NCBI GenBank assembly: GCA_963762115.1
Contig: CAVXJH010000001.1
Coordinates: 1 to 10,069 of the forward strand
Source: Candidatus Babeliales bacterium
Lineage (GTDB): Bacteria; Babelota; Babeliae; Babelales; JANWKD01
Length of the DNA: 10,069 nucleotides
Direction: 5' to 3'
In this document: positions 4,652-8,317 of the stretch, one piece after another
How positions within the stretch are numbered: position 1 is the stretch's first letter
How the letters are laid out: every line of letters begins with the position of its first letter
Program-made: the position numbers and the translations under genes
Notes under the pieces: generated by a model
The model's database searches: none
What the model was told of the DNA's origin: nothing
Seen by the model: only the letters and a program-made list of their open reading frames with translations

Positions 4652-4685
4652 TTAATTGATAGGACTTGGCGTAAAAAATATTTGG
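4652..4685 (-). repeat. Displaced copy of the priA 3' end (QIFFTPSPIN*)
   Basis: 31/34 nt identical to 6344-6377; the three differences are synonymous (ACA>ACG, CCT>CCA, AGC>AGT). Confidence 0.9.
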
Positions 4686-4706
4686 ATTTATCGACTTAGA
4701 TAAATC
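4685..4706. other. Hairpin GATTTATC-N6-GATAAATC just downstream of the 286-aa gene, at the edge of the priA-like copy
   Basis: Perfect 8-bp inverted repeat, AT-rich. Possible weak terminator or junction structure. Confidence 0.4.
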
Positions 4707-4714
4707 GATTATTT

Positions 4715-5575
4715 TTATTGTAATTCAATAAAACGTAAATGGCCTTCTTTTTCATTGGTAGCAACCCACTGGTGAAGCTGTGCAATATCTGCATTTTCAG
4801 GTTTGGCGAGCCATTGCAGAGTTCTTTTTTTATCTCGATTGAACTTAAAAAAGAATTCATCTTTAACTGTTAAAGGTCGTTTTGATCCGGCAGCTGCAAG
4901 AGAAGCCAAATGGTTATAATAAAATTCAATATCTTTTTCGGGATATCCTGAAAGGAATCCGTTGATATAGTCATTTCGTTCTGTTTGAAAGATTATTTGG
5001 TCTCTTCGATTTTCCCAAAGATATTTAACAAACTGCAGCCCTTCTTTTTCACCTTCAGGTCTATACATAATAAGAGAATTTAATGGTGGTGTAGACAGTG
5101 TTATAGCTCGTACCCCTTCGGCTTTTAAAACTAATTTTATTTGATTGTTAATTTCTGAAATATCATCAATACCTCCATAGTACACTTTTTTATATCCTGC
5201 AACCATACATGCAAGGCTTTGGTTTGGGTCATCAATATTTTCTATATTTTCTGCTATGGCTGGGCGATAACACATTGGACCAGATTTATATTTATCTAAA
5301 ATTGATTGTTTTAATTTTGTTACTTCTTGGGGAGACAGAGCAACTGATGGTAATACGTTCGCTTGAGCAACTGATTGTTCTAAAGCCAATTTTAAATCGG
5401 CTTCTTCTTGTTGTGCACGTTTTGTTTCTTCTTTTTGGTGGTCAAGTGAAGCAGCAATAGCCTGCTGCATTCCTTGTTCTTCTAATTGTTCATGGCTTAG
5501 GGCAGCAGCGCCGTTCAACAAAACATTAAAGTTGAATAAAAGTGCAATTGTAAGGATAATATTAAATAAATTCAT
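4715..5575 (-). CDS. Hypothetical exported protein (286 aa) with two N-terminal ubiquitin-interacting-motif (UIM)-like segments
   Basis: Signal-peptide-like N-terminus; LEEQGMQQAIAASLD and QEEADLKLALEQSVAQ; C-terminal domain contains a GFLSGYPEKDI motif. Confidence 0.8.
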   Translation of the reverse strand: MNLFNIILTIALLFNFNVLLNGAAALSHEQLEEQGMQQAIAASLDHQKEETKRAQQEEADLKLALEQSVAQANVLPSVALSPQEVTKLKQSILDKYKSGPMCYRPAIAENIENIDDPNQSLACMVAGYKKVYYGGIDDISEINNQIKLVLKAEGVRAITLSTPPLNSLIMYRPEGEKEGLQFVKYLWENRRDQIIFQTERNDYINGFLSGYPEKDIEFYYNHLASLAAAGSKRPLTVKDEFFFKFNRDKKRTLQWLAKPENADIAQLHQWVATNEKEGHLRFIELQ

Positions 5576-5693
5576 ATAATTTTTCCTATTATAAGCTTCT
5601 TCGTTTATATATTATTAACCTATCTGAAAAAGTTCCAAATAGTCAATAATTTAAGCTTTTCAGCAAAGAAACGGGCTCTTTTTCGGAGTTATA

Positions 5694-5719
5694 TTAATTT
5701 ATAGGACTGGGTGTAAAAA
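5694..5719 (-). repeat. Displaced copy of the priA 3' end (FTPSPIN*)
   Basis: 23/26 nt identical to 6344-6369; the three differences are synonymous (CCT>CCC, AGC>AGT, ATC>ATA). Degenerate similarity continues to ~5733. Confidence 0.85.
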
Positions 5720-5741
5720 TAAATTTAGCTTTACTAGTTTT

Positions 5742-6329
5742 TTATTTAGCTTTAAAAGGCAATAAGCGGTCTTCTATTTCATTGTATAGCGCATCTTCTT
5801 GAATATATTTGGCATCATTTTTTTTATTTTCCACCATGGTAAATACATCAAGACCTTCTTTATTTTTAGCCCGCGAGTCAGCTTTTTTATAAAGTAACAA
5901 TGAAACACATTTTTTGTGACCAGCCAATGCAGCAAGCATCAACACGGTATTTCCAGTTTGTTTGTCTACTGCGTTTGGATCTGCGTGTTGATTAAGTAAT
6001 CTTGATGTAATCGCTTGTGCATTTTGGGTGGTGTGGCGTTGCGCACTTTCAAACATATGTTGATCCATTTTACTCATATGTAATCGAGAATAATGTTTTA
6101 CTGGATTGCTTAGATAGAGATGCATCAAAGGCGTATAGCCTTCTTGGTCGAAAAATTCTGCAACTTTATACTGCTCAGTTAATTTAACCACATTATTAAA
6201 ATCAGATTTTTGTACGGCCAAAATAAGTTGTTTTTTAGCTTCTTCTTGTGCAAGTGGTTGCGCGGGTTGCGCGGGAAATAGTATTGTGCAAGTTGTTAGA
6301 CAAATAAAAATAAATTTTTTTTTGTGCAT
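5742..6329 (-). CDS. Exported ankyrin-repeat protein (195 aa)
   Basis: AAGGAG RBS in the 14-nt gap after the priA stop; signal-peptide-like MHKKKFIFICLTTCTILFPA; ankyrin motifs DQEGYTPLMHL, LLNQHADPNAVDKQTGNTVLMLAALAGHKKCVSLLLYKKADSRAKNKEGLDVF. Confidence 0.88.
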   Translation of the reverse strand: MHKKKFIFICLTTCTILFPAQPAQPLAQEEAKKQLILAVQKSDFNNVVKLTEQYKVAEFFDQEGYTPLMHLYLSNPVKHYSRLHMSKMDQHMFESAQRHTTQNAQAITSRLLNQHADPNAVDKQTGNTVLMLAALAGHKKCVSLLLYKKADSRAKNKEGLDVFTMVENKKNDAKYIQEDALYNEIEDRLLPFKAK

Positions 6330-6343
6330 GAAAACTCCTTTTA

Positions 6344-8317
6344 TTAATTGATAGGGCTAGGTGTAAAAAATATTTGGCTCTTAAACTTACGATGATTAAT
6401 TATGGCATATATTTTTACAATATCTTCCATAGCGTTTGCTTTAATATAGATTTTGCGGGTGTGCGTATTTTTTATTTTATGCACCGGCGGTTTTGCGGGC
6501 CCCAAAATTGTTAGCTGGAGTTTGTGTGTATCAGCATATTCAAGCAGTAAGTTCATTAAATTGGTTGCATTATTATCCACAATTTCTTCAGTTGCATGTT
6601 TGAGTTCAATTTCCACTAACTGCTTTGCAGGCGGATAGCCAATCATAAGCCGTTTTTCAATTTCAGTGGCATAAAATTTCAGATAATCTACTTCGTTTAA
6701 ATAGGCAAATATGGGATGATTTACCATTGTTTGCACTAAAACGAGGCTTTCTGAGCGTGCTCTTCCGGCACGTCCGGCAACTTGAATTAGTTGCTGTAAA
6801 CAGGTTTCTGCGGCATTAAACATAGGAAAATGCAAGTTCAAATCTGCCCAAAGCACACCCACTAAGGTGACATTTGGAAAGTGATAACCTTTGGTAATAG
6901 TTTGCGTGCCCACTAAAATATCTAAATTGCCTGCATGAAAATCTTGCACGGTTTGTTGCCATTCTTTTTTTTTAAGGGTGGTATCCATATCAGCGCGGGC
7001 AACTTTGGCAAAGGGAAACAGCTTTTCTAAAATAGTGACCACTTGCTGGGTGCCAATTCCTTTTTTTATAAATTGTGCCTGGTCAGCCTTGCAACTCGGG
7101 CAACACGGCGGCAACATCATGGAAGTAGTGCAATAATGGCAGGTTAGCAGATCATTATTATGAAGTGTTAAGCTCACTGAACAGTTTTTACATGAAAATA
7201 TAAAGCTGCAACCTTTGCACTGCACAAAAAAACTGAACCCGCGTCTATTTAAAAAAATAATTATTTGTTCGCGTTTATGCAGGCGATCTTTAATAGCATC
7301 TTCTAGTTCTTTACTAATCCAAAAGCTTTTACGCTGTTTTTTATCGGCTAAAAATACGGTTTTAATTTTAGGAAACGAACCGCCAAATCTTTTTTTTAGT
7401 TGAAAAAATTTCCAACCCTTGGTTTTAACATTATATAAAGTTGCAACAGATGGCGTGGCCGATCCAAGTAGTATAGGGATATTAGCACTTTGTGCACGCA
7501 TAGTTGCTGCGTCTTTACTATTAATTTTAGGGTGTTTTTTTTCTTGGTAGCCAACTTCGTGTTCTTCATCAACAATTATAAGTCCCAGATTGGGAACGGG
7601 AAGCAGTATCGGTAAATGCACGCCAATAATAAGCACGGGAACATTATGCATTAAAGATTGCCATAATAAGTTTTTATGTTTTGCAGGAGTTGCGCTATGA
7701 AAACCAAATATTAAAATATTTTTTGGCAGCTGCGTGCGCATAATATGTTCAAATTGCAGTGCTAAGGTTACTTCGGGTAAAAGAAGTATAGTGGTTTTGT
7801 TGAGCGCGCAGTTTTGGATAATTAATTGTTTGTATACTTCAGTTTTGCCTGATCCTGTAACGCCGTGCAACACCGTTGGCATAAAAACGGGATTGTGCAG
7901 ATAATAGTTTAAAAAGGTTACTACTTTTGTTTGTTCATCAGTTAAAACAACTTCCGTTATACTGCTATCCAAATCAGGGGTCAGTGCAGATTTAGGATCT
8001 TCTTTTTCTTTTAAAAATGATCCAATTCGTTTAATAAAATGCACCGGTTCAACTTGATTATAGGCCGCAAGCAGATCAATAAATTCGTGATAATGTAAAT
8101 CAGCCGGGAACTGTTCAATGGCAAGTGCATGCCGGATGGCGTATTTGCCTTCGTCGGCCCACTGTTCCATCTGCTCGGTAACAATTGCCGGGCAAACTTG
8201 ATTTCTAATGGGCACGCGGACAATTTTGCCAACTAAATTTGGCTCATTCCAGGTGGGCGGAACTTGATAGGTTAGTGGCTCTTTAAAGCCTTTGAGTAAG
8301 CGAACTTGTATATACAT
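6344..8317 (-). CDS. priA: Primosomal protein N' (replication restart helicase PriA)
   Basis: N-terminal LTYQVP..VRVP 3'-binding domain, Walker A HGVTGSGKTEVY, LLPEVTL, IIVDEEH, GSATPS, FLNRRGF, four CxxC Zn ligands, GIGTQQ, ILVGTQTITKGYHFPNVTLV, QVAGRAGR, GYPP. Confidence 0.97.
   Translation of the reverse strand: MYIQVRLLKGFKEPLTYQVPPTWNEPNLVGKIVRVPIRNQVCPAIVTEQMEQWADEGKYAIRHALAIEQFPADLHYHEFIDLLAAYNQVEPVHFIKRIGSFLKEKEDPKSALTPDLDSSITEVVLTDEQTKVVTFLNYYLHNPVFMPTVLHGVTGSGKTEVYKQLIIQNCALNKTTILLLPEVTLALQFEHIMRTQLPKNILIFGFHSATPAKHKNLLWQSLMHNVPVLIIGVHLPILLPVPNLGLIIVDEEHEVGYQEKKHPKINSKDAATMRAQSANIPILLGSATPSVATLYNVKTKGWKFFQLKKRFGGSFPKIKTVFLADKKQRKSFWISKELEDAIKDRLHKREQIIIFLNRRGFSFFVQCKGCSFIFSCKNCSVSLTLHNNDLLTCHYCTTSMMLPPCCPSCKADQAQFIKKGIGTQQVVTILEKLFPFAKVARADMDTTLKKKEWQQTVQDFHAGNLDILVGTQTITKGYHFPNVTLVGVLWADLNLHFPMFNAAETCLQQLIQVAGRAGRARSESLVLVQTMVNHPIFAYLNEVDYLKFYATEIEKRLMIGYPPAKQLVEIELKHATEEIVDNNATNLMNLLLEYADTHKLQLTILGPAKPPVHKIKNTHTRKIYIKANAMEDIVKIYAIINHRKFKSQIFFTPSPIN

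Follow-up and report, generated by a model that had tools for sequence, protein, structure and literature searches.

Copies of the priA 3' end closing single-gene units in a Babeliales contig, and tail copies behind unrelated genes in related genomes

The 10,069-nt contig CAVXJH010000001.1 (assembly GCA_963762115.1, Candidatus Babeliales bacterium), which in its entirety is referred to here as the window, carries on its minus strand the gene priA followed by an ankyrin gene, a short copy of the priA 3' end (copy B), a UIM-like gene, a second such copy (copy C), older accessory genes and then the convergent gene orn. This layout raises the question of how the end of a core gene comes to be repeated behind the accessory genes that follow it. 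The gene order and codons reported in a first-pass annotation of the same DNA are confirmed, the core of the tail reading TTT ACA CCT AGC CCT ATC AAT TAA in priA, TTT ACA CCC AGT CCT ATA AAT TAA in the copy at 5694, whose core was earlier given as 5694-5719, and TTT ACG CCA AGT CCT ATC AAT TAA in the copy at 4652. On balance we favour an explanation in which the two repeats are displaced former priA 3' ends closing single-gene units, and in which these units were gained by additive capture through homologous recombination at the gene end, probably with DNA taken up from diverged relatives and without an integrase or nuclease in the unit. The features on which the argument turns are the following.

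6344..8317, minus strand: priA, the anchor gene, intact, 657 aa (Pfam DEAD, Helicase_C, PriA_C and PriA_3primeBD)
6344..6379, minus strand: the working priA tail, SQIFFTPSPIN*, in which the Ser of FTPSP is private to the lineage and common to both copies
5742..6329, minus strand: cargo 1, an ankyrin-repeat protein of 195 aa (Pfam Ank_2, E 1.2e-10), starting 14 nt past the priA stop
5694..5730, minus strand: displaced tail copy B, non-coding, 37 nt, matching 36 nt of priA with one extra nucleotide in the T-run
4715..5575, minus strand: cargo 2, 286 aa, with a signal-peptide-like N-terminus and a weak UIM-like motif at residues 56-70; GC content at third codon positions (GC3) 0.22
4652..4685, minus strand: displaced tail copy C, non-coding, 34 nt, with 3 synonymous differences from priA and nothing else

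Among the direct repeats of the window this three-copy tail family ranks first, and its members lie 650 and 1042 nt apart. When the last 27 nt of priA were searched at up to five mismatches on both strands of the 1.53-Mb bin that contains the contig (mostly another organism's DNA) only these three sites were found, which speaks against a dispersed motif; the next-best match has six mismatches and a different translation. Copies B and C show four and three mismatches respectively, and 1000 base shuffles of the downstream 6.3 kb never gave fewer than six. In full alignments the two copies together differ from priA by seven synonymous changes, one non-synonymous change and one indel, copy B contributing four synonymous differences, the non-synonymous difference and the indel, and the differences between copies B and C are 3:0 synonymous to non-synonymous. 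The earlier statement, which concerned the core only, is thus to be supplemented for the fully extended copy B. The distance from the preceding stop to the copy start, put earlier at about 20-30 nt, is 29 nt for copy C but 11 nt for copy B when fully extended. Six core mismatches had been counted, and their synonymy stands but their independence does not, the Ser change being shared; that the five independent changes in the 24-nt core should all be synonymous has a probability of approximately 5e-4 if neutral and 6e-3 under local duplication, for a core whose boundary was chosen after the fact. At the position of FTPSP the PriA ends of other relatives mostly read FTPNP, FTPQP or FTPHP (Asn, Gln or His for Ser). 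All three window tails carry the lineage-private Ser and therefore come from one lineage. Copies diverged by substitution, as these are, cannot come from a collapsed or duplicated assembly.

The genome with which the window is to be compared requires a word of definition. The bin's main genome is a Babeliales genome of 1.51 Mb (G000), and this was considered as the window's own background and rejected on two grounds. For four window genes, priA, polA, orn and ddl, contig C6 of the same bin carries a further copy at 46-68% amino-acid identity, and in a quick PriA tree (loci L033, L049 and L050 being too short to include) the C6 PriA pairs as sister with that of a same-genus relative, G001 (support 99), with the window PriA outside that clade. 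The window PriA is 55-59% identical to PriA in records titled Dependentiae/Babeliales or unclassified. The contig probably belongs to a different organism within the order and strayed into this bin, and results obtained with G000 are taken to describe a relative and not the window's organism.

The tail-copy layout is not tied to priA or to any one site. An initial scan of every open reading frame end in G000 against its own downstream DNA gave many non-coding tail copies. A strict detector was then applied in which the alignment had to span the stop, the copy could be neither the end nor the inside of a same-strand gene, and the distance was limited to 15 kb. On the main contigs of G000 this gave 35 raw hits at 26 anchors, 17 of which were dropped because they came from an array of 11 paralogous genes, from a repeat protein or from one dispersed repeat, leaving 18 tail copies at 13 unrelated anchors. 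By Pfam these anchors are ydjM-like, rsmG, maf, truA, aspS, mazG-like, a beta-lactamase-fold gene, murB, tamB, a Na+/H+ antiporter gene, rodA and two without a family; a scan for other core genes with downstream tail copies had been suggested in the first-pass annotation. In controls on the same contigs the detector found no mid-gene copies downstream and two upstream, seven copies of tails upstream (five of them in the paralogue array) and 11 of heads upstream (many from signal-peptide paralogues), and a simpler scan gave 17 anchors with tails downstream against none for mid-gene segments and none for reverse-complement tails. Seven relatives were also sampled at 200-400 kb each, all scans being of Babeliota genomes, and copies were kept in four of them: two of four hits in G001 (secA, 210 nt, and gatB), six of six in G003, two of two in G022 and five of five in G041. 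The other three gave none (G014, with a single paralogue hit that was dropped; G020 in 400 kb; G016 in 200 kb). Other repeats of gene ends were seen in the course of this work. At G000:C6:350000-361000 approximately 11 paralogous signal-peptide genes have their 3' ends and starts repeated head-to-tail with stop and start overlapping, and mirror-image cases, in which the 5' end of a gene and its upstream DNA are copied 1-2 kb upstream, occur at G000 C6:294967(-), C3:70970(+) and C7:20197(-) and at L183:8679-9614. These 5'-end copies are rarer than tail copies.

At priA itself, a first pass over 29 related loci with 1.5 kb of downstream DNA gave no tail copy except a weak one. Among 31 longer loci, of which 28 include the 3' end (24 with at least 4 kb downstream, some redundant), there is one clear copy, in locus L032, and one weak copy of 71%, in L169. 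The L032 copy, on another Babeliota-like chromosome, is 162 nt long and 98% identical and is arranged with priA around a single opposite-strand AlbA_2/RecG-C gene. The layout thus arose at priA at least twice, with different boundaries. An orn-like gene lies directly behind priA in 5 of the 28 related loci and varied accessory genes in the rest, which bears out the earlier description of small recombinase-free units stacked immediately behind priA, in a stretch that differs in gene content from one relative to the next. Upstream of priA in L032 (574-7254) there are five tandem paralogues of 288-480 aa, and a similar run in G041 (L178-L179) ends at the tail copy of a glycosyltransferase gene that lies 11 kb away. 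MntA/HepT-like pairs recur in the first slot behind anchors, at the tamB locus L160 (confirmed by Pfam) and at priA loci L037 and L040 (by sequence resemblance only).

The ends of the copies behave differently from each other. Over the 35 copies kept, the 5' extents range from 29 to 210 nt with a median of 72, and 34 of the 35 exceed 30 nt; a 1200-nt query found no tail copy longer than 210 nt in the genomes then searched. The 3' ends are anchored at the stop, 29 of the 35 copies ending within -6 to +18 nt of it and the other six running on for at least 27 nt, some into a paralogue start or end. Boundaries differ even within a locus (99, 96 and 59 nt at tamB, 54 and 76 nt at rodA), and the priA copies of 34 and 36 nt in the window contrast with the 162 nt in L032. 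A fixed crossover, giving a constant tail length per gene as for site-specific elements, was therefore not found, and the upstream boundary, which the first-pass annotation had left as either fixed or variable, is variable overall though often close within a locus. Most units contain between one and three cargo genes, which may point either way; one G041 unit holds six. The kinds recognised are ankyrin, DnaJ, beta-propeller, GNAT and SPFH proteins, hydrolases, an MntA/HepT-like pair and AlbA_2, along with many unknowns. Among the 34 cargo genes scanned with Pfam there was no integrase, HNH, GIY-YIG or LAGLIDADG match and hence no recognisable driver; one cargo is an 85-aa fragment of an IS200 transposase. 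At tamB, copies 1 and 2 have in common a 31-nt non-gene flank (2 mismatches, and nowhere else in the DNA searched), yet carry unrelated cargo, and this flank appears to be the footprint of an inherited junction.

The nature of the differences between copies and working tails points to their origin. For a neutral copy beside a gene under purifying selection, the ratio of the non-synonymous to the synonymous proportion of differences (pN/pS) is expected to be approximately 0.5, a benchmark that we inferred for local duplication. Pooled over the 35 copies pN/pS is 0.22, and for the 21 copies behind housekeeping anchors it is 0.14 (109.5 synonymous, 60.5 non-synonymous; pS 0.33), differing from 0.5 with a P of 4e-16, a value that overstates the case since kin are non-independent and the housekeeping labels were assigned after the fact. 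Single loci give synonymous to non-synonymous counts of 22:3 (secA) and 14.5:1.5 (tamB), and the differences from copy to copy are all synonymous between tamB copies 1 and 2 (6:0) and mixed at maf and rodA. Together with the 7:1 in the window, the excess at housekeeping anchors supports the first-pass proposal that each tail was formerly the functional end of a distinct priA allele. Judged on these patterns, many copies descend from working alleles of diverged relatives, and some look like near-identical copies that have since decayed.

Capture by homologous recombination at the gene end could begin in one of two ways. Incoming DNA in which the priA tail is followed by cargo may be trimmed on its priA side and circularised, after which one crossover within the 30-200 nt of tail still present would insert it. 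In the other route, strand exchange would stall before the stop codon and end in an illegitimate join, in a manner like homology-facilitated illegitimate recombination (HFIR). By either route the gene would keep one working tail and the other would land behind the cargo; the 5' end of the copy would be variable, and its 3' end would fall where homology ends, at the stop. The tail copy may then promote spread by acting as a short second homology arm, such that a donor with the order gene, cargo, copy would recombine through the gene (the long arm) and the recipient's own tail (the short arm), each event adding cargo ahead of the existing units and pushing older units downstream. Since protein selection acts on both the donor and the recipient tail until the event, with neutral decay afterwards, the differences of the copies would be mostly synonymous, and tails at the stop codon would be what is seen because selection keeps events that leave the anchor gene whole. 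The order 'newest first' put forward in the first-pass annotation agrees with the identities, from near to far, at tamB (97, 94 and 88%) and rodA (89 and 79%) but not with those at priA itself (83 and 88%). Of the genes that might serve such a route, ComEC is present in 40 of 41 genomes of the order but also in 10 of 14 control genomes, and DprA in all five genomes tested, one of them a Patescibacteria record.

A number of observations weigh against capture of this kind. Copies at one locus are in many cases similar in length (34/36, 60/66, 88/91 and 96/99 nt), which a site preference could also explain, and the shared flank is present at only one of five multi-copy loci. Convincing families are lacking for 15 of the 34 cargo genes, among which an unrecognised nuclease may be hidden. 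The predicted gradient, with cleaner sequence near the stop, is not seen (0.20, 0.20, 0.20 and 0.16 by distance bin). The presence of ComEC, found also in controls, is no proof of transformation, and all counts of machinery refer to G000 and other relatives of the window's organism. No close strain supplies an empty site or an alternative allele, the nearest assembled PriA being 58-65% identical and a 92-94% relative being fragmentary. Finally, pN/pS is 0.41 for the 14 copies behind non-housekeeping anchors and 0.45 for the five G041 copies, neither of which is different from 0.5, and the genes that flank copies at maf, murB, aspS and the Na+/H+ antiporter look paralogous, as local tandem duplication would give.

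The last two points bear directly on the alternative that survives best, that of local tandem duplication of the tail plus the first downstream gene, after which the cargo diverges or is replaced and ordinary recombination later puts diverged alleles in place of the working tail, giving the synonymous look. Repeats that extend 60-80 nt or more past the stop at maf copy 1, at the antiporter and at the G003 aldolase and FkbM loci are also in its favour. As the general explanation we consider it rather unlikely, although it probably accounts for a share of the loci. No homology is detectable among the window's two cargo genes and the gene that follows them, and at tamB, rodA and L032 the cargo is unrelated and its orientation mixed. 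Moreover, the ratio of 0.14 at housekeeping anchors and the synonymous differences from copy to copy would need one extra allele swap for every copy.

A second alternative is homing, in which a nuclease would cut near the anchor end, repair from a donor would bring in a resistant, synonymously recoded tail together with cargo, and the nuclease would since have been lost or would act in trans. The architecture is that of the WHO clusters at FBA1 (PMC7282813; statements here about papers cited by PMC number refer to parts of their text), recoded tails are what resistance would select, and the similar lengths within loci would fit. One unit begins with the IS200 transposase fragment, another carries an AlbA_2 protein, and G000 encodes five small stand-alone GIY-YIG frames of 89-143 aa (C3:533000, C3:558505, C5:10664, C5:148358 and C5:155858). 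However, HNH and LAGLIDADG_3 profile searches of G000 gave no match, none of its six GIY-YIG matches is at the 13 loci, no homing endonuclease is present among the 34 scanned cargo genes, and 13 unrelated targets would need many specificities; we therefore regard homing as improbable. At least one stand-alone GIY-YIG frame has its own end repeated 3.3 kb away.

Elements that integrate at att sites in the 3' ends of tRNA or protein genes restore the gene end at insertion by bringing a replacement tail, leave the old tail at the distal junction and may accrete in tandem, and they depend on an integrase and on a crossover at a fixed position; integrons require attC and attI sites and keep mostly to one orientation. 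The first-pass annotation had considered a site-specific recombinase acting in trans on an attB within the final ~35 bp of priA, and a related possibility is that the units are eroded integrative elements cut down to one gene each. The replacement tail and the tandem accretion are alike, the start points of the window copies differ by no more than 2 nt, and G000 has two large serine recombinases. These are away from the tail-copy loci, however, and the only tyrosine recombinases in G000 are two of Xer size, probably XerC/D (most sampled relatives also have only two), to set against 13 unrelated targets. The lengths of 162 nt for the other priA copy, of 99/96/59 nt at tamB and of 54/76 nt at rodA are at odds with a fixed crossover, and there are no element remnants in the units. 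A search with PF00589, as a test for integron IntI, found nothing in the window or next to the G000 loci, and a strict likeness to integrons, as suggested earlier, fails on the mixed orientation of the cargo. The spacers of the units are each gene's own coding tail, lie outside the 25 longest inverted repeats of the window and have no Rfam match. As a general mechanism site-specific integration is largely refuted, and as an explanation of the window it is very improbable. That the repeats are a regulatory site or dispersed element merely overlapped by priA, or an artefact of assembly, is the least credible alternative and scarcely to be entertained: the contig is probably foreign to its bin, has frameshifts missing from relatives' contigs and has a hairpin before copy C, but the motif occurs nowhere else in the bin, the differences follow the codon frame, each locus repeats its own gene's tail with no common motif, promoter and terminator scanning made no call on the copies, Rfam gave no match, and artefactual repeats would be identical.

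Three known systems come close to capture at the gene end as proposed here. The nearest in architecture is that of the WHO elements at FBA1 in Torulaspora and Lachancea (Coughlan et al., 2020, PMC7282813), where units also stand serially behind a core gene with displaced 3' fragments between them, in either orientation, the tail is replaced at each event, and the model of the fragment as a second homology arm was proposed. WHO units, however, encode the driving endonuclease and occupy one gene with a near-fixed cut site, fragments of ~400 bp and yeast meiosis as the setting (PMC7282813), whereas here there are bacteria, 13 targets in one genome, copies of 29-210 nt, unrelated effector-like cargo and, by Pfam, no endonuclease in the unit. 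Insertion with long target duplication (Furuta et al., 2010, PMC2853133) resembles the present case in its small inserts without a mobile-element gene and its variable direct repeats of more than 30 bp, often spanning a start or stop, and was described mostly in naturally competent species. Repeats of over 30 nt around inserts below the 20 kb of that class, with no mobile-element gene, are what was found here (34 of the 35 copies; units of 650 and 1042 nt). In contrast, its cargo is restriction-modification genes, which was not the case here, and the insertion was attributed to the double-strand breaks that they make; the tabulated repeats are identical at 43-47 of 45-47 bp, and the part of the text examined has no serial stacking or synonymous divergence (PMC2853133). 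In E. coli conjugation, trimmed and recircularised DNA integrated by a single crossover gave partial duplications of 109-950 bp at ~4e-9 (PMC3240628), and both there and in HFIR one homologous end anchors foreign DNA, the circular route duplicating variable lengths. This was a laboratory event, not presented in that paper as a natural, repeated route of gene gain (PMC3240628). The HFIR option of the first-pass annotation comes closest of its proposals, but classical HFIR joins at 3-10 bp of microhomology and pairs the insertion with a deletion in the recipient (PMC3240628), whereas the product here is a duplication. By this comparison the layout would work like a WHO cluster without the endonuclease and like a long-target-duplication insertion without the restriction-modification cargo, and would belong to neither, nor to the integrons or att-site elements. 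The open literature searched (subscription papers and supplements lie outside it) contained no description of this for priA or for Babeliota, and the words 'competence', 'direct repeat' and 'integrase' are absent from two TM6 genome papers.

The remaining features of the window are listed here.

5744-5754 and 5723-5733, minus strand: an 11-nt direct repeat seen in the sequence, over the cargo-1 stop and over the start of copy B
4685..4706, minus strand: a hairpin with an 8-bp stem and 6-nt loop immediately before copy C, whose T-run comes next; terminator-like by eye
2501..4569, minus strand: older accessory genes without tail copies, namely a second ankyrin gene in pieces (4141-4569, on to ~3382) and two short genes with signal-peptide-like starts
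1607..2227, plus strand: orn, an oligoribonuclease-type exonuclease (Pfam RNase_T), the convergent core gene that bounds the variable interval

The 11-nt repeat at the junction of copy B is a possible microhomology, suggestive only, and the hairpin is absent from the calls of the terminator scan. The N-terminus of cargo 1 is signal-peptide-like as judged by eye, and its GC3 is 0.26 compared with 0.33 in priA. The 'UIM' label given earlier to cargo 2 corresponds to a sub-threshold Pfam match (E 0.017, 15.4 bits against a cut-off of 21); its C-terminal domain has no Pfam family and has two homologues at 26-29% in G000. The two window ankyrin genes have no protein-level match to each other at E<=1. 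The second ankyrin gene (3382-4569) is frameshifted in the contig, as is a tandem ddl-ddl gene at 1-1537, which in relatives occupies one frame of ~740 aa. Relatives' low-depth contigs are without either frameshift and show indel differences near 109, 186, 530, 3953 and 4228-4233, and the indels in the window contig may be assembly errors. Two sequencing runs hold the 92-94% relative as short, low-depth contig pieces, none of which bridges a tail junction; one leaves the window sequence at 4645, 6 nt behind the stop of copy C, which is a weak hint of a variable junction. No RNA run was listed as containing the sequence. Two intergenic self-complementary elements of ~150-175 nt, at 2362-2535 and 8910-9063, have arms of 22-26 nt that are 77-92% complementary and resemble repetitive extragenic palindromes (REP) or miniature inverted-repeat transposable elements (MITE); neither has a further BLAST match in the bin or an Rfam match.

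Babeliota are host-dependent and have reduced genomes with many ankyrin proteins (PMC4776705), and the tail copies bear on how such organisms, with few tyrosine recombinases, acquire new host-interaction genes. They provide a countable and datable scar of gene gain, in that the copy marks the junction, its synonymous distance gives the divergence of donor and recipient (pS ~0.33 at housekeeping anchors) and the extent of its decay gives the age of the event. The pattern also suggests that a short duplicated gene end is sufficient to make cargo additive under plain homologous recombination. We put forward more tentatively, as something short of an even prospect, that gene capture in Babeliales is enzyme-free and genome-wide, the last 10-70 codons of any core gene serving as a reusable landing pad, and that the tail copy may render an effector unit of one or two genes portable, as a cassette to be added without loss, by transformation, behind the same gene in other strains and species. 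If so, this would be a stacking of genes like that of integrons or WHO clusters with neither integrase nor endonuclease, and it would explain how reduced intracellular parasites with few mobile elements renew their large effector repertoires.

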